Below the pieces are notes generated by a model. The model worked only from the letters and a program-made list of their open reading frames with translations, ran no database searches and had not been told where the DNA came from. A stretch of 63,903 bases of DNA from a virus (lineage: Duplodnaviria > Caudoviricetes). The position numbers and the translations under genes were made by a program. Below, in pieces: positions 3,257 through 52,852 of the stretch. Position 1 is the stretch's first letter, and each line of letters starts with the position of its first letter. The DNA is taken from positions 1 through 63,903 of IMG/VR virus record IMGVR_UViG_3300042898_001199; one strand, given 5' to 3'.

Positions 3257-3318
3257 TGAAACGCTTGGAGAGGTCTGCTCGTGAGAGAGGCTTTGGGGTT
3301 CGACTCCCCACGTTTCGC
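3257..3318 (+). ncRNA. tRNA-like element without an anticodon arm
   Basis: 7-bp acceptor stem TGAAACG/CGTTTCG, T-arm TGGGG-TTCGACT-CCCCA, stemless D-loop CTTGGAG, and a GTGA-tetraloop helix in place of the anticodon arm. Confidence 0.75.
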
Positions 3319-3339
3319 TAACCAATTAATACACACACT

Positions 3340-4412: not shown

Positions 4413-4471
4413 GTTAACTGATGAGTCCTGAGTGGACGAAACGTGAGGCTCTCCAGCCTCATGTCTTAACC
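4412..4471 (+). ncRNA. type I hammerhead ribozyme (HH2)
   Basis: stem I GGTTAA/TTAACC, core CTGATGA, stem II GTCC/GGAC, GAAA, stem III CGTGAGGCT/AGCCTCATG, GTC triplet; predicted cut after C4465. Confidence 0.95.
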
Positions 4472-4485: not shown

Positions 4486-4722
4486 ATGAATACTGAAGAA
4501 CAACTGAAAAAAAGGCTTGCCCTTATTGAGGATGACTTGCGAGTAATTCGAGAGTTCATCTACATCCAAGGTTTGACATCGGAGTTCGAGAAATCGACCC
4601 CGTATTCTGACGAGGCTTGGGTTCACCTGAACAACATCGACATTGCATGTGACCTAAGCGATGACGAGTGCCTGACTTGGAAAACATTTACAAACTTTAA
4701 CGAACAAACTAGACCGCTATGA
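4486..4722 (+). CDS. early hypothetical protein
   Basis: ORF immediately after HH2. Confidence 0.75.
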   Translation: MNTEEQLKKRLALIEDDLRVIREFIYIQGLTSEFEKSTPYSDEAWVHLNNIDIACDLSDDECLTWKTFTNFNEQTRPL

Positions 4723-8570: not shown

Positions 8571-8761
8571 GTTTTCACTATCTTTGTAATCAATAGGTTA
8601 AACACTATCTCACTAATAAAAATACACGCTCACATGAATAAGCAAATATCACCCCGTAAAAACAACATGACTTACGCTGTAGTATACATGATGGTTGCTT
8701 TTAGAAAGCTCAGCAAAATCAACATCCAGAACGCATTTATCACAAAAAAAATTGGCCGTTT

Positions 8762-13294: not shown

Positions 13295-13585
13295 TTACTT
13301 CAAACGTGGAGTGCCGCCTTTTCCATTTCTAGCGCGATTGCTAGACTGTTTCTCTTTTACTATCAACCCTTTCTTTGTGTGGCTCATGTCTTTACCGTCC
13401 TTGTTACCGTAAGTTCCAGATTTTTTATTCTCTTTATTCAGCTCTGAACGATACTTACGTCTCTCGGGAGTAGAGTGATATTCTTTGTTATACTCATCCT
13501 TCTTAGCCTTAGCCTTTGGGTTAGACTGAAAGTATTTAGCACTCTCTGATTTGCCTTTTTTAGTACCTGCTAGTGAATTTCTCAT
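13295..13585 (-). CDS. basic HNH-like protein
   Basis: DGKDMSH...SSNRARN motif. Confidence 0.6.
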   Translation of the reverse strand: MRNSLAGTKKGKSESAKYFQSNPKAKAKKDEYNKEYHSTPERRKYRSELNKENKKSGTYGNKDGKDMSHTKKGLIVKEKQSSNRARNGKGGTPRLK

Positions 13586-14029: not shown

Positions 14030-14042
14030 GGGCGTTGTGTTT

Positions 14043-14120
14043 AAAACAAATAAGGAGGATTGCTCCCCCTTATATGTAACCTAATAAATAATCAATAAAT
14101 CTATGAGAAACAATTGAACA
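14043..14120 (-). ncRNA. candidate sRNA antisense to TAACC-AATAAAT..ATG leaders
   Basis: promoter TTTG-N21-TATATTTG (14156-14124), ~75 nt non-coding, then GCAA-tetraloop hairpin (14050-14073) plus U-rich tail. Confidence 0.55.
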
Positions 14121-14167
14121 TTGCAAATATACAAAATAATCTTTTGTAATTACAAATGTTAATAAAT

Positions 14168-18095: not shown

Positions 18096-18127
18096 CAAAT
18101 TTACGTCATTTTGTTATTTGCTTTCAA
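18096..18127 (-). promoter_or_regulatory. promoter for the lysis cassette, probably leaderless
   Basis: TTG-N21-TAAATTTG ending 5 nt before ATG 18090. Confidence 0.6.
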
Positions 18128-21100
18128 TTTTATTGTCAATAATCTTGAAATAATTAGTTTTTATAGGCTTAACATTTGTCAACTTCTTATTGTATTGATA
18201 CAAGTCGTAGTAATATCTTTCTAAAGCTTGTTGACCACCTGCCTCACTAGCTTCATACTTACTGTAATCAGTATCTGTTTCAATTGATTTAGTGATGTAA
18301 TCAGACACTTCTTGATCGTATTCCTCTTTAGAGAATCCCTCTAAGAATTTACCTAACGCAACATCATCAAGGAAAGTTAAGTTTTCAAAGTTTAACTTAG
18401 GATAATCAGCAGGATCAACATCATACTTCAACTTCTTCTTAGCGTCAAACTTTGCCTTCTCAGCTAAGAATTTAATTACCGCATATTTACCCTCATCATT
18501 TCTATCTTTCAAGGCATATCTATTATTCTTCAACTCATCTTGTATGTAGTTCTTGAACATTGATGTAGCCTCTTGAGTCAGAGCTTCAGATCTTTCTTTT
18601 CTCTTTTCTGCTGAGACAAATTTAGAGTTGTCTTGTACAGACAAAACACCTACACCGTTCTGATCAAAGTTCAACACACCAGCTACCAAGTTGTATTTAC
18701 CGTCAGATGATAAAATAACTACGTCTTGTTGAATAGCAACCTCATCTTGAAGCGACTTGATAAAGTCTCTAGAGAATGGAATTTGCTTACCATCCATAGC
18801 AAGTATTAAGTTCGTTGCCATGATCGTAGCGGAAAGCATTTTATTTAGGTCTGCTGTTTCTTCGTTGAACAATTTACCACCCTCTTCCCATAAGTCATAA
18901 ATAGTTGCCTTGTTGTGTCCTGGCTCATCAAGATAATCTTTATATAACTTTTGAGCTTCTTGCATCAACATATATACTGGAGGAACGCTAGTTGCAAATG
19001 CTAAAGCGGCATACTTTTCTACAGCATCATATTTTTCAAAGTCAATACCTTCTGTAAAATAAAGAGATTGTAGAACTTCATCAATAGGTTGTCTTTCTGC
19101 ACCTTTCATATTTCTAGCAAACTGCAATAAAGATATAGCCATCGCTCTACCAGAAGCACCGTATCTAGAGGTGGTTACATTGGCCGCTAGATTAATACCC
19201 ATAGAGGCGATCATCTTCCACATCTTGTCCGGGTTAGTAAACATTTCTAAAGTTTCTTCACCTTTTTTCTTTTCCTTGTCATCATCACTAAAGAAAGCTC
19301 TTTCAATACCTTTTACAGCAGCAAATATCACAGTATACATAGTCAAACTTGTAGCTGAAGTGGCAAATTTAAATAATCCTCTTCCTAGATCTGCTCCCTT
19401 ATTCATCCGGTCATCCTTAGTGATACCTCTTCCAGCTCTCTTAGCTCCGTAAAGCATGTTGCTAACGTCTCTGTATACAAAGTTGTTGAATAAGTTAAGC
19501 ATTTGAGCGACAGTATCATTTGATGATACAAGACCTTTACTAACGTCAGATTTGCTTCCCTTGCCTGTCAATGCCATTTTAGGTATACTAAACAAATCGG
19601 GCAACCATCTGTAGTTTGCTCTTGCCTGACCTTTGAATGAACCACCTTTAATAGATTGAATTCTCTGATCTGCAAATGAGGCAGCCCTATCTAAATCATA
19701 TTTGTAATCACTATCATCAAAATGTTTAGCTTCAGAATAATCTTCGCCAGTTAAACGCTTGAACTCTGATCTAAAATAAGACATCCATTCCCCAGGAGTT
19801 AATGGTGCTGTTAAGTTGTGCAATGAAGCGATTGAGTTTTCTAATTGCTGAGAGAAAGTATTCTTTGTAAGGTTTCCTTTCTTAGTAGTTACCTTGACCT
19901 TAAAATCCCAGTTTAAATTAGCTACAGGGCTGCCAAATTTCTCCATAAGATTTTTAGCCTCTCTGTAAGACTTGGGGTCAAAACCTCTAAGGCTTAAAGT
20001 TCTAAAAATACCAGAACCTATATTTGTTAAAGTCTCAGCTGCTGTTCTTCCAATACCAATCAAAAGTTTAGCCGCAAAAGATTTTGTCAACTTTGTTAAG
20101 AAGTTATTTGCAGATCTGCTTAATTGATGGTCAACACGATTTCTGTTTGACTGTTGAAGAGCGTTTAATGTTTTGACATCTGCATCTCTTCCTTCCGCTC
20201 TAGCCGCCTCTCTTGCGTTTTTAAACACTTCATTAACGTAAGATATTGCGTTGCTAATATAGAAATCTCGTGCAGATTCAAAGGCGTTGTTTGCCACAAG
20301 AGAATCAACATTGAATTGTAATGGCCCAGCAGGATCTTTTGACACACGACTGTAAGATGACTGAGATCTAACAGTACCTCCAACAGCACCACCATATCCA
20401 AGCTCAACATTAGAGTCTTCAGACATTCCCTTTCCAATATATCTACGAGGAGAGAAGAACTCTGTCAGCTCACCATTAACACCTCTTACAGCGTTAGCGT
20501 TGATAATTAACTCGCCAGAAGTTCTGTTGGCCTCTCTAAATGCACTGTAAAGCTTTTGCTCGCTCTCAGACATCAAAGAAGAAGGGTCGTTAAGATAAGC
20601 TTCGTATATCTTTCTATAATCTAACTTGCCGTTCGTTACAAATGCAGGGTTAGATATTAAGTTGTTGTATACGTCTTCTACGATATTCAAGACACCTTCC
20701 TCATCGTATATCGCACGCTCGATAGAATCTTCTTTTAGCTGATTGCCTAACCAGTCATTCGTATTCTCGTTATACTGATAAGCTTTATGACCTGAGTCAA
20801 GGATATGAGAGAGTATACCAACTCTGTGTTTGAAATATTTCTTAGCACTTACAGAACCTTTTGCAGTCTTAACTCTATCTTTTAAGAATAAGAATTTACG
20901 ATTTGCAAATGATAAGTCAGCAGTTTTCTTGTAGTAAGAATCTAATATCTGATTTACCTTATCGCTCATCTTCTTAAACGATCTGTCGATAGGAGCAACA
21001 ACATATTGATATAAAGCATCTCCTTCTTTCAATCCAAGAACGTCTTCCCATTGGGCAGCCTCTTCAGACGATAACTTTCTCAACAAAAGATTAACCCCTT

Positions 21101-24100
21101 TCGTTAACTTTTTATAAATATCACCTAGTTGATTTACAATTCTTAATCCAGCCTCTTGCGATCTAATCTCAACACGATTAACCATTTCACGAACTTCCTT
21201 TTCCGGCATGAAGCCGTACTCCATTCTGTCTAAAGCTTCGTTTAATTTTAACAAGTCTTTTACATCTAAGTTCATTAACTCGTTAGCAGACAAGCTTCTT
21301 AATCTTTCAAACAAGCTTTTTTGCTCACCAACAAATAAATCGTTAGTAGTAATGCTTGAAATCTTCTGGAACAAATCATCTGTCAAACCTTCTTTCAAAG
21401 TGTCAATTTGATCTTGATGATTTGCCTCATAGACTCTCAGCCCATTTTCCATAGTGTAAAGATCTCCTGAGGCCCATTGCTCGTGTGTAGCGGCATCAAT
21501 TAACCCCTGGTTATACAGCGAGTCCAAAATTCTTTTAGCCTTGTTTACAGATCTTACAAATGCGGTATACTCCTCTAGCGTGTCAATAGGCATAGACTTG
21601 ATATCTGTTAGTAGATCAAAATAATCTGCCGGCAGAAATTCTTTCTTGCCTAAATCTGCGCTAAAAGCCTTGTCAGCCAAAGACATATCTAATCCCGTAT
21701 GATCAGGAACCGGCTTTGCCAATCTAGCAACCGCGTCTAAATAACGATCCATCTCTGCATCAGTCAATAGAGGATTGTTGTCCGTGTCAAACAAAGGAAT
21801 AGATACGAATCTTAAAACATCTTCTGTAAATTCATTGTGCCTTCTCTTAAGGGCTGTCTTTCTATTAGAAGCTAAAGCATCCATTTTAGCAGCAAACTCC
21901 TTGTTAGCAACAATCTTATCAACATACTGTATGAAGTTGTCAATTTGCTTGTCTGTAAGAGATGTCACTGCACCTGTAGCTCTGTTTACAATAGCTGAAA
22001 TTTGCTGGCTATTCAACCCACTCAGTTTAGCTAATTTTAAATATTCCTTAACAAAGTATCTAAAACTATTACGTTTGTTTTTCTCGTCAGCCTTAGCTTG
22101 CTTAATATTTTCTTTTGTTTGAGATAATTCAGTTCTCAGTTCTTTTAGTTTTTCTTTTAACTTAAACACATCAGGCTTTTCATCACCTCTCTTAGCCTTA
22201 AGTTCAGCCTTGTTTATTTTATCCCACTGTGCATTTACAGCGTCTTTTAACTCGTCAACCGTAAAGAACTCCATGCCATCTCTTGTGGCATCAGCAAATG
22301 CTTTTTCTATAGCAATAGCTTTTGAAGAGTTATCCATTTCGGAATATATCTTAGCAACAGTAGCAATATCTTCAGCTAATTTATTTTTTAAGTCCCTTTC
22401 AATATTCTCCTCAAACTCTCTTTTTTTCCAAGAAGACATATCTCTAAAGCCTTTAATCTTTCTAGCTTTAGCAATCAAGTCATTTACTGTATTTAAAATA
22501 CCAGCACCTTTCCTTACCTTATCCGCAGACTCGTCAAGAAGTAAACTGTATTCCAATTTATCACTATTATTCATTTGAAGTTTAGTAGTGATGTTTTCCG
22601 ATTTGCCTGTTGAGGTTTTATTTTTCTCAGCCAATACTTCGTTAGCCTCAAACATTTCTAAAGCTGGGTTGAACTCAATAGAAGAAGGATAATCTTTATC
22701 AGGTCTCTGATAAAACTCTCCCTTCATTTTCTCAGTTGTCTCAGCTCTTAAATCTTCACCCCACTTAACAACAATCATTGGATAACCTAAATTAGCCGCT
22801 TCTTGAGCAATGAATGCAGCTTGTTTATTAGGATCAAAAGCCTGGCCTGGATACATCTTCTCAAACGTAGCTTTTGCCGCATCATATAAGTTCAATGGAT
22901 CCTCATTAAAAGGATACACATTATCTTTAGGTATTCTTACAACATAACCATATTTACCTGATACATCTAATACGTCAGGTCGAGTGTAGTACATGCTGAT
23001 ATTTAACCCCGGTCTTTCGTCTTTTCCTGTTCTTGAGGTGTTTTTACCAAAGTACTTAGGATCGATAGAAGATATTTTATTTGGAGAGTAGTGGTAGAAC
23101 AAGTAATTACCTTGGTCATCCTCGGTCATATGCTTAGTTAACTTAGCATTGTCTACTAAAGATTTAACTTGAGACTTAGACACGAAATTTTTAAATCCTT
23201 CCGTATCTTTTTTGGAACCTAATACATGAACTTGTTTATTTGAATCAACCGCTATCTGATCCATCTCTGGAGTTAGCTCGTTAAATTTCTGGTATGCAGG
23301 CAATCCGTTCTCATCAACCGGCCCAACATATTCACCTATATATGTATTATTTTCACCTTCCGTTTTAAAGTCAACATAATTATCTTTATCAAGACCCTTG
23401 TAAGCAATAATAGCGTCAGCACCGTTTGTTACTTTAGAAACAGTCAACTCTTTAAGACCTGCGTATCCTCTTCTCCAGTTGGCATCTATATCAACTACAT
23501 GAAAATTATTAACATTAAGAATTGCAGCTGAAATTCTACCTTTGCCACCACCTGTATAGTCAGCAGATTTATTTTTATTAAGTGTCCAATATAAACCCTT
23601 GCCTAAGTTCTTAGCCCCTGTACCTTTTTCAGGATCTAAGTCTTCCGCTTCAATCATATCTGAATTTTCAGATCCTCTGTAAAAGATATTTTGCAATAAA
23701 CTTTTTGGGAAAATATTTTTGAGGTACTCGGCATATTTTTCAACTGTCCCAATAGATTTTAATTCGGGATTTTGTTCAAACACTTCGTTTAAAACTGCAC
23801 GTTGAGTATCATCTATTTGAGATTTAACTTGAGCTTTATATTTTATACCAGTATTAATTCTAACTACTGAATAAGGTATATTTCTAGCTCCTGCAAAATT
23901 AGCCGCATATTCTAAATCTCTTAAAGGAGTATTATCATTTTCAATTTTTTCTGATGTTCTAACTTCACCATCTTTTACTGAAGATAAAATATCTTTATAA
24001 TTTTTCCTTTCTGATAACATATGGACAGTTACTCTTTGGCCGTCTTCTGTTTTCATTACTCCTGGATAAGAAATGTGTTTTCTTTTTTTCGCTGGAATAT

Positions 24101-27100
24101 CAGACTCGTCTTCAACAATTAATTTAGAAGGTATTTCAATATAAGCAACTGCCGATTCAATAGGAGCGTTTTCCATAAAACCTTCTTCCTGTACATTGCC
24201 TAATCTTTTAGTTGCGGCATCAACTGTTATTTTACCGCTTTTATTTAATGGGATATTTAACTTCTTAGATAAACTACTAAAGTCAATTTCATTAGATTTA
24301 AATATTTCAGCTATAATTTTCTTCCCAACATCAACTCTTTTCTTAAAGGTTTCATCGTTAGAGTTTATAAAGTAGTCTTTAATAACACTATGAAGTTCTT
24401 TTGCGCTTAATTTTCCGCTAAATAATTTGATCCCCTCATTATCTTTTTCTTCTTTAACTGCCGTATTTAAAGCATTTCTAAATACACTTAATGGTATATC
24501 ACCATCTTGAACTGCTAACTCTAAAATATCTATAGCAGCAGCCATACCATCTCGACTACTTAATACTTTTAAATCTGTTGATTTAAATACAACTACTCTC
24601 ACAGGCTTGCCTGGGTATTTGTCAAATATTTTATTTACTAAATTGATAAATGTTTTTGACATCTTAGGAGTTGAAGCCCAGAATGTACCGTCTTTATTAT
24701 ATTTAATAGCAAAGTGCAAACCTCCATTTCCTTCTAATACTACTCTCTTATCTCCTTTTTTATACTTAACGCCATCAACTTCCGTGTCTTTGTCATAAGT
24801 GCCGTAAGATAAATCTCCAACCATTTTATTATCAGGGAACATTGATATTACGACCTCACCCTCTAACTCTTCAATCTTTGCATTTTGAACTAAATACCCC
24901 TCATCTTCCAATTTTTTCAAATCAGATGCAGGTATAAGATTAGCTTCAAAATTTCCACCTAATGAATATTTTGACTTTACTTCATCAGACGTGTTAACGT
25001 TTTCAGCAAATTTATTATCAAGTTTTATTTTTTGACCATAGTAAACTTTGCTTGCAAAAGTCTGGAAGAATTCCATAATCTCTTCTGGAGAAGATGTATC
25101 GTCAATAGGCTTAAGATCAGGGCCAAAATACTTAGCAATAAGTTGGTTGATATACTCAGCAATAGACTTTAAGAAAGATTTATTAGCAGGATCAGACTCT
25201 TTTAATTGAGACAATAAAGCTGTAACCTCAGAAACATATTCCTCAGCACGCTCAACATCGCTATACTCTTCATTAGAAGCTAAATCAGCAGCGATCTCAT
25301 CTATTGATATCTCAAATGGAACGCCATCTTTATCTAAGGCTATTAGTTTTTTACCCTTAGCAAGATCTGCTATTTTATTTTTAAACTGAGCGTATAACTC
25401 AGGCTTATCTCCAAACATTTTAAACAATAGAGCGTGAGTCATCTCATGCGCTACAGTACGAAGATTAGCAGACTCTAAATTAATCGCAATAACTCCAGTT
25501 TCTTCCCCAGGAAGAATTGTGAATAAACCTCTTGAGTCAGCATTAGCACCAACAGAGTTAGCGTAATTTTTAAAATCACTTTCATTATCAAAAACAATAA
25601 TGTTAAAGTTAGGAAGCACAGACTTTAATGTTTTTAAAGCCTTGACAACTTGAGCTACTACTCTCTTCTGAGTAGGGGTCTTTGCCACTTTTGCTAACTC
25701 CTTAGCTCTGTTGTTATCAGAAACATTATATCCGGTAGTATTTGCTTGGTTTAAAATATCGTCTGTTGTAGGCTGAACGTTTTCTTCATTAGAAGTCTCT
25801 ATTTTATTGCCATCCTTATCGAGCAAAGTATCAAAGTCGTATTCTATAGCAAAGTCTACTTTCTCACCAGCTACATTCATCGTGCTGTAATTATCTCCTT
25901 GAGATTCAAACTTCTCGGCTCCCTTGATTCTAGGATGGTAAGATCCATCTTGAAATACTAATCCGTCATGGGCAGCTACAGACTCTTGATCAAATTCTAT
26001 TGCAAAAGCAACAGCGTCTTCTCTAGACAAATTAGGAACAAAGAAACTAAGTTCTGAATTACCATACTTGCCAAATGCACCGTCAGTAGAGTAACCTCTT
26101 TCTTCTAGCCAAGATTTAGCAGCCTCATTTCTTTTAGCGTTTTCTTCATCGCTAAGAGATTTTCTTTGAGGGTTCCAAGCTGTAAGAAGACCAAATACAC
26201 CGTTCTTAATCGTTTCTATAAATGAATTACGGTCAGGAAAAGAAGACTCCGGTAAATTTGCTATAGCATTCTCATCCCAAGCCTCGTCTCTAACTATTTC
26301 TGGGGTGTTGGTTTCTGTTCCTGGAGTTTGCTCAGATTTAACTTCACGCAATAGAGGGGTGATAAGAGCATCGTATTTATCATAGATAGGCTTATAGATA
26401 GCGTACAAATCATCCGGCATGCTGCCTTGTGTATCACCTTTTGTATCTGAATAATTGTCTATATCAGGTATCGCATTACGAAGATCTTCCTGTTCTCTAG
26501 CTCTTAGATCAGCTATGTCTTGATCTTTGTTTTCTTCAACAGGCTTAACCTTTTCTTCTTCATCTTTTTGTTTATTAGCCTGCTCTCTTGCTTTTAACAA
26601 TTGAGCGTTGATTAATTCTTTTGCCTTAGGTAGATTTTCTTCAACCATACCTCCAGATACTTCAGGAGCAAAGTTCACTTCTTTAACAGTGCCATCTTGA
26701 TTCATTGAATAAGAAACCACACCTAGCTCAGAAAGAGAATTAACGAGAACGTCTGACGATTGTCTTCTCTTTTGATCAGCATTAAATGCAGTTAATATCT
26801 TATTATCTAATTCTTCAATTTTTGCAGTAGACTCCACGTCAACTATGCCTAATTTTTCAGCTTCTTTAGTCGCTTGAACTAGTTTGCCTTTTTGAATGTA
26901 TAGGTCTAAAATCTCAGCCTTGGCCAAGTCTCCAGCTTTCTTAAAAGGAATTACTCTTTCTAACTCTTTATAAGTATTGTTAACCTTTTGGAAGTCCTTA
27001 TACTGATCAGTTTCTTTTACATCGGCATTTCTCTTTTCAGCTTGAGCTAAAATTTCCTTGCCGTTTTTACCAACCTCTAATTGCATGAATTTCAAACCAG

Positions 27101-30100
27101 CAGTCTTATCAGTTTTTTCTGAAATAACTTCTGCGGTAGTTGCTATAGATGCGCTAGCTGTTCCGATTAAAGCCCCGATGGCCCCTTGAACTAAAACTTC
27201 TTTAGCCGCCTCAGGAAGAGTGTCATTTTTAATTTCTGCTAAATTCATGATTGTAGACTCTACAACACCAGAAGTTATCTCTTCCCCAGCTTCTTTTGTA
27301 CCTTGAGAGAACACTTTAAACCCAGCATTTCTAGTTATTTCGTATGCGTTTGCAAGAAGTGCCTTGGAAATTTGTTGAGCAGATAAACCATCAGCTAATC
27401 CTCTAGAAATGATTTGAGCTGAATTCTTTTTAATAGTAATTCCCACAGCGTCCGGAAGTTCAGGTACTAAAGCTTCAATAGAAGCTAGTGTGCCTGCTGT
27501 CAAGGTTCCGTACAACATTGCTAATCCTTTGTCATACCCAGCGTCTTCAAATTGCTTAACCATATCTCCTTCCATTACAAGGAAGTTATATGTAATAACT
27601 CCTGCTGCGCCAAAAGACATGGATGCTCCTACATTATACACTAGATTTGGCACTTGAGATATAGCGTTGCTATACCACCACATTCCACTATACTCTTCTA
27701 AATAAGGATTGACAGCCATTTCTGACCATCTTGTTTTTCTAAACTGAGTATTTTGCATATTTGCATCTACCTCGTCCCAAGTATTACTATCATCTGTAAA
27801 CACAGATTCAATAACATTATACGTTTGAATAAAACCTTCCCCAATATTTTTATTTGCAGTGAAAATAGTTTTCACTGTTGATTCAAGAATATTATCCTCT
27901 TTAGCACTTTTTTTCAAATAAGCGTTCCACTCGTCTTCTTTTAATTTTGCAGCGGAATATGCTCCTGAATATCCGCCACCAGAAACTACAGAATATTGAG
28001 GGTTTTCACGAAGATTAATATCTAAATTGTCAATAGTATATTTAATTGATTTTAAATCAGCAAAACCTTTATCTTTAGACACGATATTCAACTTAGAACT
28101 TAAAAAAGCAATCTCTTCGTAATCTTCTTTATGATCATCATAAAACTTTTGAAGCTTACCAGCGTCTCCACCAAGTGACTTGCTAGACTCAACTATCTTA
28201 TTTCTTTCTTCTATTAATTGTTTTTGTTTAGCGAGAATCTCGTTAACCTTATCAGAATTCTCATTTTTAATATAAGATTCTCCCTTTTCATTTTTGTCTA
28301 AATAGGGTTGAAGTTCGCCTTCTAACTTATCTAATTGATTTATTTTTTGATTAACTAAATCTAATAATTCTTGAGCTTTATTTTTATCAACACCATCCTT
28401 AAGGTGCAATCCATCTTCTTGAACATCATAATACTGTTCAATCTCTTTAGATATTTCCTGAACCTCTGTATTAAGTTTTGTTAAATCCTCAGAAATCTTC
28501 GCAGCTTTTGCCGATCCGTCAGTAGATTTCAAAATAATCTGATTGTCAACAACATCGGCATATTGAGCTAGCTCAGTTTCTGTTTCTTTAATGGATTTAT
28601 CAAAGTTTGAAATAAGCTCATTGTTTTTCTTAATCTCTTGTAGGTTAATATCTAATTCAGATTTATCTATATCTAATTTAGATTCTTCATCTGCAATTTT
28701 ACTATTTAAATTTTCTAATCTTCGAGAGTCTTTATCAGCAGTTCTCAAAGCACCAGATGATTTCAAGTCATCCGTCTTTAAATATGCAGATGCACTATAA
28801 AAAGATGTTACATCATTTAAAGCAGATCTTCTAATATTCATAGCCCATTGAGCATCTGCTTGAAAACCTTTATCCATTTCACCATACCCTCTTCCGGCAA
28901 CATTGTTTTCATGAATTTGCTTCATGTGATCAAGATCCTCTTGCTTAAACTTACCAGTCTCAATACCTTTTTCGATGTATTTTAAATCCATGTAATAAGC
29001 AACGTCCTCGTTCAATTTATTGTAAAGATCATCAGCAGCTTTAGCTTTTGCCTGTGCTTCTAATTCCTTAACTTTTGCAAAATCATATTCAATCGGATTG
29101 CCAAATTGATCTACCTCTGGCAACTTAACATTCTGAACGTATTCAGAGTTTGCAATTAAGCGTTTTAAGTCATTTTGATTGCCAATTAAAAACTCTTTTG
29201 GAGAGATGCCCATGCCACTCAATATTTGAGCAGATTCAGACACATTTATATTGTTGAAGAAATCTTCGTCAATTTTATCAACATGTGCGTTGTTAGTAAC
29301 TATTTGCTCTGCACTCTCTCTATTTTTTCTTTTATTAATACCAGCAAAGAAAGTTCCTTCTCCAGGACGGCCAAGTATACCTCCAAGAATGTTAAACTTG
29401 CCGTCTAAAGATTTAGCTTGAGTTTTTTGGACTTCCTTGTTTTTCTTGATCGTGCCTCTAAGAACATCCATAAATGTTTTAGGAGCATTCTCGTCAGCTG
29501 TAGCTACTACTTCCTGCTCTCCCATCAAACCTTCAATGGTTCCTAAGTTATATTGCCCTTGGTGTTTAGTCAAGGCCAAGTCTACAAGAGCTGTAGCGGA
29601 GTTTTCATCCCATTCGGGATTACTAGCTCTAATCTCTTCCTTAAGTTTAGTTTCTTCCTCAGCACTCATGCCGTGAAATAAAGAAACTGTTTTTCTATTA
29701 AGGTCATTCCACGCATCATCATTACCAGTGTAATTACGAATAGTAGAAGAAGATTTTTTGATATAATCATTATAAACAGCGTCACCCACTTGGCCTGTGT
29801 AGTTATTTGCTGTTTTTTTAGCTTTAGTTACATAATCTTTTGAGTAATCGCTTTCTTCATTTTCAGAGAAGTATACAATTTCATAAGTGCCATCTGCATT
29901 ATCCTTATACCCCAATATCTGATCAACTCCATATTCAGGACCTTGATCTACACTCGGGTCGTTTTTTCTTGCAAATGAAAATTTCTTTTGCTTTTCCTTT
30001 TTTTTTCTGCCTGGTTTTTCCGGGTCATCAACTTCTATATCTTCCTCCACAACTTCTGGCTCTTCAAAAAATCCTCCCCCTGTTGATTGGGAAAGTAAAT

Positions 30101-30527
30101 TACTAGCTTTAGATCGAAGATCCTTTAAGTCAGAAGCATCCTGCATGAAGTTCTGTGGTGCTGGGGCAGCAAATGTCTGCGTAGGCTCAGTTGGCGCAGG
30201 CTCACCTGCACTATCTATAACAGAACCCTGCTGAGTATCAGCAGAAACCTGACCGGTTGCTTCTGTAGTCTCTAATGGCTGATCTGTAGGCTGAGATAAT
30301 TCTTCCTCTCCAACCTCTTTTTTTTTTCCAGAAATCAGATTTTCAAAATCCGACAGAGTTTGTACACGCAAATGTTCTGGAGCGTCAGATGAAAACTTCA
30401 AAACCTTGGCAATTCTTGTCTTATAGACATCGTTGCTTGATAATAAAGTATCAAATTCTTCTTTGTCAGAATTAATCTTACCATTTGTTTTCAAATACGA
30501 ATACAATTCTTCTGTTTCTAAAGCCAT
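18114..30527 (-). CDS. giant polyvalent internal virion/ejection protein (4137 aa)
   Basis: last of the ejection-like genes; DUF3293-like LTAWNP..EENAKRN, zincin VAHEMTH, two ART-like YRG/YHY..[GM]xY[WY]T segments, long coiled coils. Confidence 0.8.
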   Translation of the reverse strand: MALETEELYSYLKTNGKINSDKEEFDTLLSSNDVYKTRIAKVLKFSSDAPEHLRVQTLSDFENLISGKKKEVGEEELSQPTDQPLETTEATGQVSADTQQGSVIDSAGEPAPTEPTQTFAAPAPQNFMQDASDLKDLRSKASNLLSQSTGGGFFEEPEVVEEDIEVDDPEKPGRKKKEKQKKFSFARKNDPSVDQGPEYGVDQILGYKDNADGTYEIVYFSENEESDYSKDYVTKAKKTANNYTGQVGDAVYNDYIKKSSSTIRNYTGNDDAWNDLNRKTVSLFHGMSAEEETKLKEEIRASNPEWDENSATALVDLALTKHQGQYNLGTIEGLMGEQEVVATADENAPKTFMDVLRGTIKKNKEVQKTQAKSLDGKFNILGGILGRPGEGTFFAGINKRKNRESAEQIVTNNAHVDKIDEDFFNNINVSESAQILSGMGISPKEFLIGNQNDLKRLIANSEYVQNVKLPEVDQFGNPIEYDFAKVKELEAQAKAKAADDLYNKLNEDVAYYMDLKYIEKGIETGKFKQEDLDHMKQIHENNVAGRGYGEMDKGFQADAQWAMNIRRSALNDVTSFYSASAYLKTDDLKSSGALRTADKDSRRLENLNSKIADEESKLDIDKSELDINLQEIKKNNELISNFDKSIKETETELAQYADVVDNQIILKSTDGSAKAAKISEDLTKLNTEVQEISKEIEQYYDVQEDGLHLKDGVDKNKAQELLDLVNQKINQLDKLEGELQPYLDKNEKGESYIKNENSDKVNEILAKQKQLIEERNKIVESSKSLGGDAGKLQKFYDDHKEDYEEIAFLSSKLNIVSKDKGFADLKSIKYTIDNLDINLRENPQYSVVSGGGYSGAYSAAKLKEDEWNAYLKKSAKEDNILESTVKTIFTANKNIGEGFIQTYNVIESVFTDDSNTWDEVDANMQNTQFRKTRWSEMAVNPYLEEYSGMWWYSNAISQVPNLVYNVGASMSFGAAGVITYNFLVMEGDMVKQFEDAGYDKGLAMLYGTLTAGTLASIEALVPELPDAVGITIKKNSAQIISRGLADGLSAQQISKALLANAYEITRNAGFKVFSQGTKEAGEEITSGVVESTIMNLAEIKNDTLPEAAKEVLVQGAIGALIGTASASIATTAEVISEKTDKTAGLKFMQLEVGKNGKEILAQAEKRNADVKETDQYKDFQKVNNTYKELERVIPFKKAGDLAKAEILDLYIQKGKLVQATKEAEKLGIVDVESTAKIEELDNKILTAFNADQKRRQSSDVLVNSLSELGVVSYSMNQDGTVKEVNFAPEVSGGMVEENLPKAKELINAQLLKAREQANKQKDEEEKVKPVEENKDQDIADLRAREQEDLRNAIPDIDNYSDTKGDTQGSMPDDLYAIYKPIYDKYDALITPLLREVKSEQTPGTETNTPEIVRDEAWDENAIANLPESSFPDRNSFIETIKNGVFGLLTAWNPQRKSLSDEENAKRNEAAKSWLEERGYSTDGAFGKYGNSELSFFVPNLSREDAVAFAIEFDQESVAAHDGLVFQDGSYHPRIKGAEKFESQGDNYSTMNVAGEKVDFAIEYDFDTLLDKDGNKIETSNEENVQPTTDDILNQANTTGYNVSDNNRAKELAKVAKTPTQKRVVAQVVKALKTLKSVLPNFNIIVFDNESDFKNYANSVGANADSRGLFTILPGEETGVIAINLESANLRTVAHEMTHALLFKMFGDKPELYAQFKNKIADLAKGKKLIALDKDGVPFEISIDEIAADLASNEEYSDVERAEEYVSEVTALLSQLKESDPANKSFLKSIAEYINQLIAKYFGPDLKPIDDTSSPEEIMEFFQTFASKVYYGQKIKLDNKFAENVNTSDEVKSKYSLGGNFEANLIPASDLKKLEDEGYLVQNAKIEELEGEVVISMFPDNKMVGDLSYGTYDKDTEVDGVKYKKGDKRVVLEGNGGLHFAIKYNKDGTFWASTPKMSKTFINLVNKIFDKYPGKPVRVVVFKSTDLKVLSSRDGMAAAIDILELAVQDGDIPLSVFRNALNTAVKEEKDNEGIKLFSGKLSAKELHSVIKDYFINSNDETFKKRVDVGKKIIAEIFKSNEIDFSSLSKKLNIPLNKSGKITVDAATKRLGNVQEEGFMENAPIESAVAYIEIPSKLIVEDESDIPAKKRKHISYPGVMKTEDGQRVTVHMLSERKNYKDILSSVKDGEVRTSEKIENDNTPLRDLEYAANFAGARNIPYSVVRINTGIKYKAQVKSQIDDTQRAVLNEVFEQNPELKSIGTVEKYAEYLKNIFPKSLLQNIFYRGSENSDMIEAEDLDPEKGTGAKNLGKGLYWTLNKNKSADYTGGGKGRISAAILNVNNFHVVDIDANWRRGYAGLKELTVSKVTNGADAIIAYKGLDKDNYVDFKTEGENNTYIGEYVGPVDENGLPAYQKFNELTPEMDQIAVDSNKQVHVLGSKKDTEGFKNFVSKSQVKSLVDNAKLTKHMTEDDQGNYLFYHYSPNKISSIDPKYFGKNTSRTGKDERPGLNISMYYTRPDVLDVSGKYGYVVRIPKDNVYPFNEDPLNLYDAAKATFEKMYPGQAFDPNKQAAFIAQEAANLGYPMIVVKWGEDLRAETTEKMKGEFYQRPDKDYPSSIEFNPALEMFEANEVLAEKNKTSTGKSENITTKLQMNNSDKLEYSLLLDESADKVRKGAGILNTVNDLIAKARKIKGFRDMSSWKKREFEENIERDLKNKLAEDIATVAKIYSEMDNSSKAIAIEKAFADATRDGMEFFTVDELKDAVNAQWDKINKAELKAKRGDEKPDVFKLKEKLKELRTELSQTKENIKQAKADEKNKRNSFRYFVKEYLKLAKLSGLNSQQISAIVNRATGAVTSLTDKQIDNFIQYVDKIVANKEFAAKMDALASNRKTALKRRHNEFTEDVLRFVSIPLFDTDNNPLLTDAEMDRYLDAVARLAKPVPDHTGLDMSLADKAFSADLGKKEFLPADYFDLLTDIKSMPIDTLEEYTAFVRSVNKAKRILDSLYNQGLIDAATHEQWASGDLYTMENGLRVYEANHQDQIDTLKEGLTDDLFQKISSITTNDLFVGEQKSLFERLRSLSANELMNLDVKDLLKLNEALDRMEYGFMPEKEVREMVNRVEIRSQEAGLRIVNQLGDIYKKLTKGVNLLLRKLSSEEAAQWEDVLGLKEGDALYQYVVAPIDRSFKKMSDKVNQILDSYYKKTADLSFANRKFLFLKDRVKTAKGSVSAKKYFKHRVGILSHILDSGHKAYQYNENTNDWLGNQLKEDSIERAIYDEEGVLNIVEDVYNNLISNPAFVTNGKLDYRKIYEAYLNDPSSLMSESEQKLYSAFREANRTSGELIINANAVRGVNGELTEFFSPRRYIGKGMSEDSNVELGYGGAVGGTVRSQSSYSRVSKDPAGPLQFNVDSLVANNAFESARDFYISNAISYVNEVFKNAREAARAEGRDADVKTLNALQQSNRNRVDHQLSRSANNFLTKLTKSFAAKLLIGIGRTAAETLTNIGSGIFRTLSLRGFDPKSYREAKNLMEKFGSPVANLNWDFKVKVTTKKGNLTKNTFSQQLENSIASLHNLTAPLTPGEWMSYFRSEFKRLTGEDYSEAKHFDDSDYKYDLDRAASFADQRIQSIKGGSFKGQARANYRWLPDLFSIPKMALTGKGSKSDVSKGLVSSNDTVAQMLNLFNNFVYRDVSNMLYGAKRAGRGITKDDRMNKGADLGRGLFKFATSATSLTMYTVIFAAVKGIERAFFSDDDKEKKKGEETLEMFTNPDKMWKMIASMGINLAANVTTSRYGASGRAMAISLLQFARNMKGAERQPIDEVLQSLYFTEGIDFEKYDAVEKYAALAFATSVPPVYMLMQEAQKLYKDYLDEPGHNKATIYDLWEEGGKLFNEETADLNKMLSATIMATNLILAMDGKQIPFSRDFIKSLQDEVAIQQDVVILSSDGKYNLVAGVLNFDQNGVGVLSVQDNSKFVSAEKRKERSEALTQEATSMFKNYIQDELKNNRYALKDRNDEGKYAVIKFLAEKAKFDAKKKLKYDVDPADYPKLNFENLTFLDDVALGKFLEGFSKEEYDQEVSDYITKSIETDTDYSKYEASEAGGQQALERYYYDLYQYNKKLTNVKPIKTNYFKIIDNKIESK

Positions 30528-41431: not shown

Positions 41432-41461
41432 ATTGTGTTTTTTTTTGTGTGTTAAAAAGAT

Positions 41462-41497
41462 AAAATGCTGGGGAGGGATATTCCGCTCCCCAACATT
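41462..41497 (-). terminator. terminator after the major capsid gene
   Basis: minus-strand hairpin ATGTTGGGGAG..CTCCCAGCAT followed by TTTATCTTTT. Confidence 0.6.
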
Positions 41498-48902: not shown

Positions 48903-49560
48903 CTACATCCGGGAATATATTTCCTTTGTCTTGAAATTCTCTAATGTATTCTTCCGGTCTAATACCCAAAGAATCTAACAACGTAAATTCGGTTAACTCA
49001 TCTTCTAAATCCTTACTTTTTTCTCCTTGTAAAAATTCATTCTTAGAAGAAGTAATTTGACTCATCGTCATATTAATAATCTCTCTTCGAGTCTTCTCTG
49101 CTTGAACGATCTTTGCTTGAGCAACTTCATCCTCTGCCTCTAGTTTAATCTCTAACTCTGTGTAGCGCAAGAGAGCCTCCTCGGCAGACTTCCACACCAT
49201 GTACTGCTCACCACCCATAAGTAACAAGAAATATATTGCCCTTCTATTTACACCCTTAATTTTCCAAGACAACATGTCTGTAATATATTTTGGATAGGGA
49301 GGCTCAATATTTAAACACTGCATCGCCCACGTCTTCCTTCTTTTTAAATCGGGAATACCTTGCCCTGGAGATCCTAGGTCGTACATGTATATTAAATAAC
49401 GAAGCACAACATCTGGATCTAAATCTTTAGGCAAATCATTTGCTGAAAATATAACAGAGAACTTAGATAAATCTGAAAATTCAAATAAGACAGGCTGATC
49501 CATAGGTATCTTATGGATTGCATATTTTAACTTATCAAATTCGTTACTCTCGTACTTCAT
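48895..49560 (-). CDS. hypothetical protein, possible terminase small subunit
   Basis: helical protein overlapping the terL start; function from position only. Confidence 0.5.
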   Translation of the reverse strand: MKYESNEFDKLKYAIHKIPMDQPVLFEFSDLSKFSVIFSANDLPKDLDPDVVLRYLIYMYDLGSPGQGIPDLKRRKTWAMQCLNIEPPYPKYITDMLSWKIKGVNRRAIYFLLLMGGEQYMVWKSAEEALLRYTELEIKLEAEDEVAQAKIVQAEKTRREIINMTMSQITSSKNEFLQGEKSKDLEDELTEFTLLDSLGIRPEEYIREFQDKGNIFPDVDA

Positions 49561-50182
49561 ATCCCATTACTTCGTTATGTCTAATAAGATAATATCTGTC
49601 AGATAATCTTTTGTTTAAAGAGGCCTCCAAAGGAACCCCTGAGTTTTTTTTAACTTTTATATAACTACCCACTGTAGGTATAGCATCCGTGCCATAAACT
49701 AGTTCCTTTTCCGGGCTTGGACCTCCAACATGGGAGACTTTCCAAATATCTTCCTCATATTTATCTTCTTCGTAATTATCAAGAATAATAATTGTCTTGC
49801 TCTTTGGCTTGTTCTGTATTACAGGAAGGACTAAAGAAAAACCGTCTGGCGGTATTAATTTACCATCTCGAATTGTAAGGTAAACATATTCTGTATTTAT
49901 TAAGCATATTTGTAGTCCGTCTATGTAAACCACACGGGTAGATGCGTTTTCGGCACTCATGCCAAATACCGTTCTCATCTCTACATACTTAATAAATACA
50001 CGGTCTCCTTTTTTCCAACCCTTGTAATCTTCATGTACCGTGCAGTCTATATTAGTCCAATATTCTCCTTCCTCTCCATTTTGACGTATTACCAAATGAA
50101 TTTTCTGATCTCCTACATTAAAACCATCAGCCAAAGGATTTTTGTCATTTAAAACAACGGGCAAATAATTTAAATACTTCAT
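49544..50182 (-). CDS. tandem GroES-like-fold protein
   Basis: two segments resembling Cpn10 (KKGDRVFIKY; VGSYIKV..YYLIRHNEVMG). Confidence 0.45.
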   Translation of the reverse strand: MKYLNYLPVVLNDKNPLADGFNVGDQKIHLVIRQNGEEGEYWTNIDCTVHEDYKGWKKGDRVFIKYVEMRTVFGMSAENASTRVVYIDGLQICLINTEYVYLTIRDGKLIPPDGFSLVLPVIQNKPKSKTIIILDNYEEDKYEEDIWKVSHVGGPSPEKELVYGTDAIPTVGSYIKVKKNSGVPLEASLNKRLSDRYYLIRHNEVMGYEVRE

Positions 50183-50221
50183 ATAATCTTTTTTTTGTGT
50201 GTAAAATTGAAATACTTTTGT

Positions 50222-50293
50222 ACAGGACTGTTCTGGTCCTGTGTGTGTTTTTTATTTGTGTGCAGAAAGTGGGGGCAACGGTCCCCATTTTTT
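50222..50293 (+). ncRNA. candidate sRNA antisense to ACACACA leaders
   Basis: TACTTTTG at 50213-50220, 5' hairpin ACAGGAC/GTCCTGT, single-stranded GTGTGTTTTTTATTTGTGTG, plus-strand terminator TGGGGGC-AACG-GTCCCCA-T6 within a minus-strand gene block. Confidence 0.5.
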
Positions 50294-50294
50294 G

Positions 50295-50396
50295 TTAGTG
50301 ATTTCTTAACTGTGTAAAAGTGGTGGGCAACAACATTGCCTCTCTGCTGTTCTCTGTCTCATAGGCAGTGTCAAATGACAAAACGTGTAATTTCAT
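50295..50396 (-). CDS. 33-aa ORF (not in ORF track)
   Basis: MKLHVLSFDTAYETENSREAMLLPTTFTQLRNH with AAAACAC leader. Confidence 0.35.
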   Translation of the reverse strand: MKLHVLSFDTAYETENSREAMLLPTTFTQLRNH

Positions 50397-50415
50397 AGCT
50401 GTGAGTTATTGTGTT

Positions 50416-51573
50416 TTATTTAACATTGCTTTGTAAATATCCTTCAAGACCTTCATCATGGTTCCAAATAAACGCCTGAGCTGTTCTCAGTGCTTGATAA
50501 CCCATCTTCTTGTGCCATTCGTCTAACGCACAAATCGAAGGTAGAAATCTTACTTTCACACCTCGATATTCGTTTACCTGTTCTTTATGATAATGCCCAC
50601 AATGGGCCTCTCTAAATTCAGTCATCGCAAACATTTCCGGCTGCTCCGTAGCCATTATTAACGGCATATCAGAAGGCTTTTCATTATCTCCGTGAGTAAA
50701 CATTATCATGTTTTTTCCATACCTATAATATTTTCTAGGCGTTGTAGAGTTGTCTACATTAACATTGGGGTCGTTTCGATACCAACCTGCTATGACATCT
50801 CCAGCGTAAAACATTCTCTCGTAGTCGTGGTTGCCAGACACAACAATTATATCAACAGGAGCTACATCTTTCAAGAAATCTACCGCTCTAACTATTAGGG
50901 TCCAGTATCCTTTAAATGATTCTTTCCACCCTATGGTATCATGTTGAGGGGTTCCTTTTGTTGTAGCCATCCTCATGCCGTCTGTATTCATTCCATCGTT
51001 TCCAATTGGAAGAAGAATCTTCTCGATATTTATACCTCGACCTTTGTTGACTAAATCTTCAATTGTATCGAGAAATTGTTTTTCCATTTCCTCTAGGGTA
51101 ATGTCCGTCAACTTTCCATAATGAATATCAGGTAAAGATATTTCAAGAGTTGATTTTGTTTTGTAGTCGGGCCTTCTGCCTTTAGTTATTACTCTAGTTT
51201 TAGGGCTGTAACTAGCTGCAAATTCTTCAATATCATTTTGAATCTCTTCTACCGTCCTGTCATTTTTGGTAACTACAGAGAACCTTTGCTCTCCTTTCAT
51301 GTTTTGCCAATATTTAACAGAATTAACCATTGAATGGTCAATACCGTTTTTATCTAAATACTGCTCAAACTCAGTTATAACATTATCCGAATCGTTGGCC
51401 AATTCAACCTTTACTACTTTTCTATTAACTTGGTTTCTTTCGGCCCTTGCAGACTTCAATGCTGCTGTAGCGTCTTGTAAACTAACTTTAAATTTTCTTG
51501 CTATGTAACTTGGGCCTGACTTTAAGTAACCTGGCCTAGCGTGGAGTATCTGTACTAGTTTTGGGATTGTCAT
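50416..51573 (-). CDS. calcineurin-like metallophosphoesterase with N-terminal HTH-like region
   Basis: PDIHYG, GND, SGNHD, THGD, GHYH motifs. Confidence 0.85.
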   Translation of the reverse strand: MTIPKLVQILHARPGYLKSGPSYIARKFKVSLQDATAALKSARAERNQVNRKVVKVELANDSDNVITEFEQYLDKNGIDHSMVNSVKYWQNMKGEQRFSVVTKNDRTVEEIQNDIEEFAASYSPKTRVITKGRRPDYKTKSTLEISLPDIHYGKLTDITLEEMEKQFLDTIEDLVNKGRGINIEKILLPIGNDGMNTDGMRMATTKGTPQHDTIGWKESFKGYWTLIVRAVDFLKDVAPVDIIVVSGNHDYERMFYAGDVIAGWYRNDPNVNVDNSTTPRKYYRYGKNMIMFTHGDNEKPSDMPLIMATEQPEMFAMTEFREAHCGHYHKEQVNEYRGVKVRFLPSICALDEWHKKMGYQALRTAQAFIWNHDEGLEGYLQSNVK

Positions 51574-51589
51574 ATAGCTAATTTAAAAC

Positions 51590-51943
51590 TTAGTGGTTTG
51601 CGTTGTTGTGGAACTCGTTAGATTTTAAAAGCGTAAAATATTCTACAAAAGATTGGTATGGAGCGTCAATTATTAAAGGCTCTGTTGATCCTGTTATGTA
51701 TATTAAAGTTCTTGAACCTATTGACGTAGAACCATCGTTACGGAACTCCACATCTGCTTGTATTGCGGCAACCTTTGTAATATCAAAAATTATTGGAACA
51801 GAGTCTGTGTATACACTTTGTCCAGGGTTTGCTTCAATTTCTTCTTCGGTATTCCACACCACACAAACAGTAGCGCAAAGTACAGGAAGTGGTTTTTTAT
51901 CATCCTCTTCCTCTTCTCTCCTTTTTTTGGACTTAAAGAACAT
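51590..51943 (-). CDS. hypothetical protein
   Basis: start set at MFFKSKK; the longer track version crosses a terminator and the SSB gene. Confidence 0.65.
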   Translation of the reverse strand: MFFKSKKRREEEEDDKKPLPVLCATVCVVWNTEEEIEANPGQSVYTDSVPIIFDITKVAAIQADVEFRNDGSTSIGSRTLIYITGSTEPLIIDAPYQSFVEYFTLLKSNEFHNNANH

Positions 51944-51968
51944 ATGGTTAATTTTATCCAAAAATACA

Positions 51969-52745: not shown

Positions 52746-52844
52746 TTTGTTTAGTTGGAGTCGAGGCCAACAAGTAAACAAGAATACTGGCCCTGTTGAA
52801 TGGTGTGAGACCTCGACCTCCCCATTCTTCGGGGCATTTTTTTT
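52746..52844 (+). ncRNA. kissing-loop two-hairpin RNA with terminator upstream of the initiator
   Basis: loop GTCGAGG (52760-66) complementary to loop CCTCGAC (52811-17); second hairpin followed by a T-run. Confidence 0.65.
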
Positions 52845-52852
52845 CACACACA

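Follow-up and report, generated by a model that had tools for sequence, protein, structure and literature searches.

Genomic Context and Anatomy of the Unit

The window analysed here is the whole of the virus record IMGVR_UViG_3300042898_001199 of IMG/VR (Duplodnaviria; Caudoviricetes; 63,903 nucleotides (nt)), a 63.9-kb record with an estimated completeness of 96%. Its expression signals are of the Bacteroidota style. A run of minus-strand genes spans positions 13295 to 52424, and inside this run, in the opposite orientation, lies a short plus-strand unit that is a candidate gene for a small RNA (sRNA). The unit sits in a 233-nt gap between two minus-strand genes. Upstream of it in the minus-strand direction is a gene for a DNA-repair exonuclease of 385 amino acids (aa) (50416–51573; phrog_704), the last gene of the replication/recombination block, preceded further upstream by an SSB-like gene and a small gene. 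Downstream is the gene for a 212-aa tandem Cpn10/GroES-like protein (49544–50182), which heads the packaging/structural block and is followed by a 221-aa gene, TerL and the portal gene. The gap is thus the border between replication/recombination genes (SSB, exonuclease) and packaging/structural genes (GroES-like, 221-aa gene, terminase, portal), and the unit is located about 1.3 kb upstream of the large terminase gene. A 33-aa open reading frame (ORF) in the gap (50295–50396, minus strand) is, by comparison with relatives, the remnant of the 3′ end of a metallophosphoesterase-like gene of about 299 aa.

The unit begins with TACTTTTG at 50213–50220 on the plus strand, a −7 box of the Bacteroidota sigma-A type (TAnnTTTG) recognized from its sequence and its conservation. 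A 5′ stem-loop follows at 50224–50240, with the 6-bp stem AGGACU/GGUCCU (arms 50224–50229 and 50235–50240) and the loop GUUCU (50230–50234). The next 22 nt, GUGUGUGUUUUUUAUUUGUGUG at 50241–50262, are a single-stranded G/U-rich tract, unpaired in the minimum-energy fold. The last part is an intrinsic terminator at 50263–50294, composed of a 14-bp stem (arms 50263–50276 and 50281–50294) and the loop AACG, with six Ts at 50288–50293. The terminator stem consists of a GC core and an A/G-U extension, and the T6 lies within its 3′ arm. The −7 element, 5′ hairpin, exposed tract and plus-oriented terminator all lie where the preliminary description of this DNA had placed them, inside a minus-strand block. 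The GroES-like gene has its leader at 50183–50212 on the minus strand, with UUUUACACACAAAAAAAAGAUUAU before the AUG, and this leader overlaps the upstream part of the plus-strand promoter. At its 3′ boundary the unit ends 1 nt short of the complement of the stop codon of the upstream remnant (50295–50297), and it covers non-coding spacer only.

The plus strand at 50222–50296 folds at −32.0 kcal/mol, compared with a mean of −16.98 (standard deviation 2.82) for shuffled sequences; the z-score is −5.33, and none of 200 shuffles is as good. The minus strand of the whole 233-nt gap gives a z-score of −1.70, with 9 of 200 shuffles as good, and the comparison of the two z-scores is a rough one between stretches of different length. 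On the plus strand, a consensus terminator scan picked out the first hairpin and the T-rich tail behind it as resembling a terminator; the second hairpin was left unflagged, presumably since its extended stem absorbs the T-run.

A coding function of the unit was considered and rejected: there is no ATG at 50224–50294 on the plus strand, and the listed plus-strand ORFs that overlap it begin upstream of the predicted transcription start site. Rfam 15 gave no match in the whole window at gathering thresholds. With relaxed thresholds, 50150–50420 gave five weak matches, all far below threshold; the best was STnc390 with 20.4 bits against a gathering threshold of 50 (E 0.036).

Recurrence of the Unit in Related Phages

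The unit recurs upstream of the GroES-like gene. A search with the 212-aa protein family found 38 viral loci. One of them, with only 34 nt of upstream sequence, was left out; in all 37 evaluable loci, the unit is present upstream on the opposite strand. This search is anchored in the alignment of the protein family and does not select for the element. A 17-nt word across the seed and the terminator gave 41 stretches, namely 36 copies of the element and 5 chance matches, and a word from the terminator only found the same 36. One variant (L106) was found via the protein and missed by both DNA words. The variants of groups D and E were first found by a pattern derived from the terminator and the seed, and were later recovered via the protein.

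In metagenome contigs, the unit is present at 15 of 15 loci with the GroES-like gene, 14 of them being full matches and one being cut by the contig end; four of the 15 are probably the same records as IMG/VR loci already counted. A covariance model found one copy in each of the five whole records carrying the 212-aa gene. In the window it gave a single strong match (92.9 bits). A second copy in the window was rejected, the only weak match (14047–14128, minus strand; 25.8 bits) being a different promoter-terminator unit. The model found no copy in three complete 78–84 kb phages that have the exonuclease gene without the 212-aa gene. Among GenBank phages, blastn gave no match to 49400–51700. The large terminase of the window has only distant relatives (24–27% identity) among the phages of Flavobacterium, Cellulophaga, Maribacter and Tenacibaculum.

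The exonuclease gene shows a different distribution. A search with its protein found 48 viral loci, and the downstream sequence could be read in 45 (three were dropped as the match ran to the locus end). The same gap follows the exonuclease in 14 loci, while in 31 the exonuclease is directly followed by an unrelated gene, whose product has no counterpart in the window. The exonuclease gene shows about 90% protein identity in otherwise unrelated 78–84 kb phages without the RNA (loci L015–L035). These phages otherwise share only 5–7% of the window (tblastx coverage, measured for three of them, G001–G003). This distribution points to a recent horizontal exchange of the single exonuclease gene. 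The metallophosphoesterase-like gene of about 299 aa is intact in many relatives, and the 385-aa exonuclease gene has replaced it in the window. The replacement junction lies within the last ~30 codons of the old gene (compare L051 2560–2890 and L052 880–1205). In one relative (L063), the 33-aa remnant contains a frameshift.

Conservation, Covariation and Strand

Across 22 distinct variants, the unit is 76–94% identical to that of the window. The flanks, compared in eight relatives, are less conserved: 56–70% for the GroES-like gene and 58–82% for the 33-aa remnant. The sequence TA..TTTG of the promoter box is invariant in all 22 variants, with CT, CA or AT as the inner dinucleotide, and the 30 nt upstream of it diverge. 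The 5′ hairpin occurs with four stem cores (GGAC/GUCC, GCAUC/GAUGC, GGCAUC/GAUGCC and GCUC/GAGC), and its loop, GTTCT in 21 variants, reads ATTCT in the remaining one.

The stems are maintained by compensatory changes. In a MAFFT alignment, 99.5% of 378 cells pair, and 27 cells show changes on both sides, compared with 11.1 in column shuffles (none of 500 shuffles reached 27). Slid controls on the same alignment gave 42–61% pairing. In the alignment fitted to the covariance model, which leans towards structure, all of the 396 cells pair and 32 are double-change cells, against 10.7 in shuffles (0 of 500). Seven pairs have double changes in this alignment, which 4 of 500 shuffles matched, and changes on both sides are seen at five of the six pairs of the 5′ stem. 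In the terminator, pair 64–73 is found as GC, GU or AU, pair 65–72 as AU, GU or GC, and pair 59–78 as GU, AU or GC.

The wobble pairs tell the strand. Among the 396 cells, 52 are G·U, distributed over eight pair positions, and none is A·C. On the minus strand these 52 cells (13%) would be A·C mismatches, and 86.9% would pair. Because G·U cells are found and A·C cells are not, the folded strand is the plus strand. The mean fold energy is −26.7 kcal/mol on the plus strand and −17.8 kcal/mol on the minus strand; for the terminator hairpin stretch only, the means are −17.9 and −10.4 kcal/mol. In both comparisons, all 25 variants favour the plus strand. The T6 follows the stem on the plus side only, and the minus-strand tail is CUUUCUG, whose Cs are kept in all variants; these two facts indicate that the hairpin is a one-way terminator. 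The T-run is also kept in all variants (as CTTTTT in L106, where one G·U of the lower terminator stem becomes G–C). Anatomy, conservation, covariation and folded strand are shown by the sequences, and the conserved box, the compensatory changes and the plus-only wobbles and T-run strongly support the core claim of the preliminary description, that a plus-strand sRNA unit lies in the minus-strand block.

The strand bears directly on an explanation without any plus-strand transcript. The hairpins could serve the minus-strand message as a terminator, a processing site or a leader-stabilising hairpin, and the TG tract could simply be the complement of a CA-rich spacer. The second hairpin begins 1 nt past the stop codon that closes the upstream gene or its remnant, and the minus-strand spacer is A/C-rich like other leaders. 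Besides, a terminator followed by an ACACA leader is seen elsewhere in the window (41431, 52853 and 14029), and the same order appears here on the minus strand. Nevertheless, a fold on the minus strand would carry the 52 A·C mismatches, with no reverse case inside the helices. Its tail has invariant Cs where a two-way terminator would have U, the plus-strand box is kept through three dinucleotides, and the plus fold is consistently the better one. This explanation is improbable. The same tail and mismatches weaken the more specific idea, raised earlier, of a terminator for the minus-strand 33-aa ORF, and the ORF itself is a gene remnant.

The covariation is also in conflict with an element acting at the DNA level, such as a boundary for module exchange, or a packaging or protein-binding site near the terminase genes. 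It is true that the locus is a mosaic junction, where the ~299-aa gene has been swapped for an exonuclease gene present in unrelated phages, and that the unit is more conserved than both flanks at a short distance from the large terminase gene. However, a DNA element predicts no strand-specific wobbles, compensatory stems, directional T-run or promoter box, and the strand-specific covariation contradicts it. The chance of this explanation being correct is next to negligible.

The G/U-rich tract between the two hairpins is divided into two parts. Its 3′ half (UUGUGUG, continuing into the C of the terminator stem; UUGUGUGC) is invariant and is here called the seed. Its 5′ half differs in length by 0–10 alignment columns and stays U/G-rich. 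The probability that the tract is unpaired is 0.74–0.93 in 16 of 20 distinct variants and 0.37–0.65 in the other four.

An invariant exposed seed, a conserved loop and the architecture of a stand-alone sRNA would also suit an RNA directed against the host. Such an RNA would base-pair with mRNAs of the host or sequester one of its RNA-binding proteins or defence factors, and the similarity to phage leaders would be incidental. Invariance of the seed across diverged phages would fit a conserved host target. In 185,579 species genomes (596 billion bases), the 17-nt word was found in 85 stretches scattered over phyla, which was judged to be chance level. The covariance model was applied to 80 of these 85 cellular stretches and matched none at E up to 0.1, the best two having E-values of 0.6 and 0.93. 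These results speak against a host-directed RNA, which is highly improbable.

Predicted Promoter and Direction of Transcription

The promoter box stands out from its surroundings. Upstream of it, sequence identity falls to 38–59% in distant groups, and the box TAnnTTTG is also present in L106 and L232. The same motif is seen at a short distance before many genes of this phage. The window contains 96 such boxes against 76 expected by chance, and 21 of them are in the 7.3% left non-coding by rough gene calling, a count in which the box at 50213–50220 is itself masked by a spurious ORF call. In Flavobacterium psychrophilum, TAnnTTTG is located at −12 to −5 (PMC9723704). Based on this position, the start site of the unit is predicted at ~50224/50225. 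The covarying helix starts at this very place, 4 nt beyond the box. It can be inferred that the RNA polymerase of the host with its primary sigma factor would transcribe the RNA from this box.

On the minus strand, the gap of the window contains no TAnnTTTG box; the nearest one upstream is at 51959–51966. The late genes are therefore probably reached by minus-strand transcription reading through across the unit. The possibility that the CA tract is a repeated minus-strand late promoter was examined and rejected: TTCTGCACACAAATAAA, with up to 3 mismatches, was found only at the element and the neighbouring leader.

The convergent orientation raises the possibility that the act of transcription matters and the RNA product is irrelevant. 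The promoter and the one-way terminator would then form a brake or insulator working by transcriptional interference at the replication/late junction, where polymerase initiating against the read-through would hold back late genes early on. The position of the unit is fixed at this module junction, opposite to both neighbours, and the upstream part of the promoter overlaps the DNA of the GroES-like leader. The plus-only terminator would confine the antisense transcript and let the minus strand pass. Still, this explanation is distinctly unlikely: it leaves the compensatory 5′ hairpin, the GUUCU loop and the invariant unpaired seed unexplained, and a 70-nt unit offers little room for polymerase collision.

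Leader Motifs and Predicted Pairing

The minus-strand complement of the tract resembles a leader motif that is common in this phage. ACACACA is found 21 times in the window against 6.63 expected; none of 100 shuffles reached 21, and all 21 copies are on the local gene strand. The density of ACACAC is 3.77/kb in the 40 nt before starts and 0.15/kb in coding sequence, and 11 of the 87 called genes carry it. For ACAC-type motifs in general, the 40 nt before starts have 8 to 25 times the density seen within genes, with a cluster at −5 to −21. Among the starts for which an ACACACA leader had been listed previously, those at 9812, 41431, 44129, 50182, 52517, 52853, 60913 and 62904 do have one, while 52349 has ACACAAA only.

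The motif is retained in evolution. In five related genomes, orthologues keep the ACACA leader in 30 of 46 cases, compared with 17 of 156 for other genes. It is kept even in the otherwise diverged leaders of the 289-aa and 365-aa late genes. The enrichment of ACACA leaders is 3.5–8.6-fold in all six RNA-bearing genomes and 1.0–1.6-fold in four of the five genomes without the RNA; the fifth, G005, shows 3.4-fold enrichment (this genome is only 84% complete). RNA-bearing genomes share 55–81% of the window and genomes without the RNA share 2–7% (tblastx). The enrichment contrast is therefore essentially one contrast between lineages, confounded by descent.

At three places in the window, on the respective gene strand, a terminator hairpin, a T-run, an ACACA leader and a start codon follow one another with no promoter box between them (41432–41480, 52800–52852 and 14030–14075). 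Genes behind this arrangement would be expressed by terminator read-through only.

Exact complements of the tract, at least 8 nt long with at least two Cs, are found in 11 of 87 start regions and in 1.30% of 5000 coding windows. In the window, the only other match to the complement of the seed region is in the leader of the GroES-like gene (14 of 17 positions). The complementarity between the tract and leaders largely restates the A/C-richness of the leaders. ACA motifs are translation enhancers that are silenced by GcvB (PMC3879156), and translation initiation in Bacteroidota depends on unstructured leaders (PMC6847099).

A second leader motif, TAACC, had been connected in the preliminary description with two anti-TAACC elements. 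At 14047–14131 on the minus strand, the site of a presumed partner of this kind, a promoter-terminator unit is present, with a TATATTTG box, a length of about 80 nt, a GC hairpin with a T-run, and a fold z-score of −3.1. Four related genomes (G006, G007, G008 and G010) retain its promoter and terminator. Although these parts are kept, the anti-TAACC sequence (GGTTA, within AGGUUA) is present in only two of five genomes, so that the proposed anti-TAACC partner is not conserved as such. The unit is situated directly before the ACACA leader of a 139-aa gene, in sense orientation. Instead of an sRNA, it may represent a 5′ leader containing an attenuator. An exact-word scan for it hit one other contig. 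Another candidate, a box at 8579 (plus strand) with GGTTA downstream, was rejected as an sRNA, as it precedes a 43-codon ORF identified by eye. TAACC is enriched before starts also in genomes without the ~70-nt RNA.

These observations bear on a wider role, in which the RNA would be a trans-acting anti-leader RNA for the whole ACACA class (~11–14 of ~85 genes) and one of several class readers (ACACA, TAACC). This is rather unlikely. The evidence in its favour comprises the tract complements in start regions, the position and the retention of the ACACA-type motif, its enrichment in RNA-bearing genomes, and the seed, invariant and mostly unpaired. A precedent is GcvB, which silences ACA enhancers (PMC3879156). 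On the other hand, the contrast between genomes is confounded by descent and G005 is enriched without the RNA, own pairs show no specificity over cross pairs, and complementarity largely follows from A/C-rich leaders. The anti-TAACC unit, with GGTTA in two of five genomes and in sense orientation, and the TAACC enrichment in genomes without the RNA do not fit a system of readers. It is similarly doubtful that the 70-nt RNA, reading an ACACA class of about a dozen genes with late structural genes among them, would time the synthesis of late proteins by translation and not by transcription. The generalization that Bacteroidota phages sort their genes into translation classes by leader tags, and that tiny RNAs switch a whole class off or on, is a speculation of equally low probability. 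The preliminary description had proposed such a system of class addresses for a host lacking Shine-Dalgarno initiation. Leader complementarity, kept ACACA leaders and their enrichment are compatible with it, while specificity and the anti-TAACC partner are not in its favour.

Possible Function of the RNA

The unit is very probably a genuine phage gene for a non-coding RNA of ~70 nt, extending from ~50224 to 50291–50294 on the plus strand, as judged from its sequence features. The favoured explanation as a whole is that this RNA is transcribed and acts by base pairing with minus-strand messages, and we give it a probability of roughly 0.6. We infer its transcription, its targets and the direction of its effect as follows. 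The host RNA polymerase would start at the box, and the RNA would open with a stabilising stem-loop. The G/U-rich single strand would be exposed, and the RNA would end at a terminator efficient only in the plus direction. The G/U tract would then bind C/A-rich, structure-free leader sequences on minus-strand messages. By sequence, the surest partner would be a transcript reading through the gap into the GroES-like and packaging genes, with 70 nt of perfect complementarity. The next best partner would be the own ACACACAAAAAAAA leader of the GroES-like gene, 45–60 nt away. Pairing would be expected to lower or time the expression of the downstream late genes, the leaders being unstructured, A-rich and without a Shine-Dalgarno sequence. 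A possible extension is the trans silencing of further genes with ACACA leaders, in the way GcvB silences ACA enhancers.

Several points weigh against this explanation. The expression, the ends and the strand of the transcript are all deduced from the DNA. No −33 element is conserved in relatives: the single TTTG (50194–50197) is 16 nt before the box, and it is absent in groups D and E. A caution about a non-standard −33 spacing had been given earlier and was right; other good promoters of this phage likewise have no clear −33 element. The absence of a minus-strand box in the gap does no more than suggest a gap-crossing transcript. At its 5′ end, the RNA is 41 nt upstream of the GroES-like start codon and does not overlap it, so that a simple occlusion of the start by a cis duplex is not evident. 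Exceptions of wobble type exist: L069 has C·A at a pair outside the consensus helix, and L221 has A·C at the outermost pair, a position that may come before the start site. In groups D and E, the identity of the terminator and the seed is partly due to ascertainment.

The pairing results also include unfavourable ones. When loops are tolerated, duplex energies of −16 kcal/mol or below are reached in 14 of 87 start regions and in 12% of coding windows, a small excess. When the linker is paired with the leader of its own neighbour, the fraction of dinucleotide-shuffled leaders as good is 0.05–0.48, and group D is no better than chance. Own linker-leader pairs are no better than cross pairs, and no joint change of seed and leaders was seen, in comparisons of low power as seed and motif hardly vary in the clade. 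Selection for an unstructured, A/C-rich spacer on the minus-strand message could have produced the G/U composition of the tract as a side effect.

Comparison with Known Small RNAs

To our knowledge, phage small RNAs have been described in a small number of model phages that infect Proteobacteria or Firmicutes. The OOP RNA of lambda and the sar RNA of P22 are ~70 nt long, have their own promoter and intrinsic terminator, and lie opposite to a polycistronic phage message at a regulatory junction. The RNA described here resembles them in size, in its own promoter and terminator, and in being antisense to a polycistronic block between cistrons. For OOP, the overlap is with the 3′ end of cII; sar spans the ribosome-binding site of ant. 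In contrast, the present RNA overlaps neither a coding end nor a ribosome-binding site but covers spacer only, and it shows no homology with them. The c4 RNA of P1 and P7 is processed from a transcript that also contains its targets, repeated short sites in an operon leader where pairing blocks the genes downstream, and it serves the immunity of temperate phages. The similarity to c4 is that a phage-encoded RNA would present exposed bases to short leader sites of its own phage, the pairing being a prediction here; the differences are the convergent orientation to the neighbours, the own promoter and the lack of an Rfam match.

GcvB is encoded by the host, is about three times longer, and works with Hfq in bacteria that use Shine-Dalgarno sequences. 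The two RNAs are alike in the G/U-rich single-stranded seed between structured parts, and in C/A-rich targets upstream of start codons that themselves promote translation. They are also alike in the potential for many targets with one leader motif, although multi-target action is here only predicted. Unlike GcvB, the present RNA is phage-encoded, ~70 nt long, from a phylum without Shine-Dalgarno initiation, and placed in antisense orientation within an operon-like block. The weak Rfam matches do not include GcvB, and there is no sequence relation. By analogy, the phage RNA would work like GcvB and is placed like OOP and sar, and it is a member of neither family.

Cellular counterparts are found in Bacteroidota. 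The Rfp RNAs of F. psychrophilum are short independent transcripts with TAnnTTTG at −12 to −5 and intrinsic terminators, and many of them are antisense (PMC9723704). Cis-encoded antisense RNAs of polysaccharide utilization loci in Bacteroides are cited there as reference 62 (PMC9723704). The promoter type and the terminator are the same in these chromosomal sRNAs and in the phage RNA, and many of the former share its antisense placement; the former are cellular and the latter is viral. Word searches of open-access text found no small RNA of a Bacteroidota phage. The unit can be considered a comparatively well-supported example of an sRNA of Bacteroidota phages, fixed where replication genes border on packaging genes throughout a group of uncultured phages.

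If expressed, the RNA would be a handle on the timing of late genes in lytic phages that use the host RNA polymerase, and on translation control at unstructured A/C-rich leaders without Shine-Dalgarno sequences. The unit with its promoter is about 110 bp long and could be a ready part for tests of RNA-based control in Flavobacteria. If it is merely a local antisense brake, it would be an ordinary, though new, phage antisense RNA.

Neighbouring Genes and Other Elements

The 212-aa protein gave no match in Pfam and PHROG searches. Its AlphaFold2 (AF2) model has a predicted local distance difference test score (pLDDT) of 73.6, and Foldseek matched it to the tandem Cpn10 chain 7ekq_R (E 1.3e-5), to GroES/Cpn10 chains, and weakly to gp31 of T4. 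The Atlas leads for this protein point to Cpn10, in agreement with Foldseek. From the model, it is predicted to be a tandem (double-length) GroES-like co-chaperonin, encoded just before the terminase genes. No sign of lysogeny genes was seen in the parts of the phage examined.

Two elements precede TAACC-type leaders on the plus strand. A hammerhead-like ribozyme at 4413–4470 has a complete core, consisting of CUGAUGAG, stem II, CGAAAC, stem III and GUC. Its match to the RAGATH-1 hammerhead is weak (22.4 bits, E 0.98) and below the gathering threshold. The predicted cut after GUC would leave the gene at 4486 with a TAACC-type leader, its mRNA beginning with UUAACCAAAUAAU. A tRNA-like T-arm, GGGGTTCGACTCCCC, is located at ~3270–3325, immediately before the TAACC leader that belongs to the gene at 3340; ARAGORN found no tRNA in the window. 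As the hammerhead and the tRNA-like T-arm both precede TAACC leaders, this arrangement suggests that an early plus-strand operon is cut into separate messages that start with a TAACC tag. In the structural block, a single ORF of 4137 codons extends over 18114–30527 on the minus strand.

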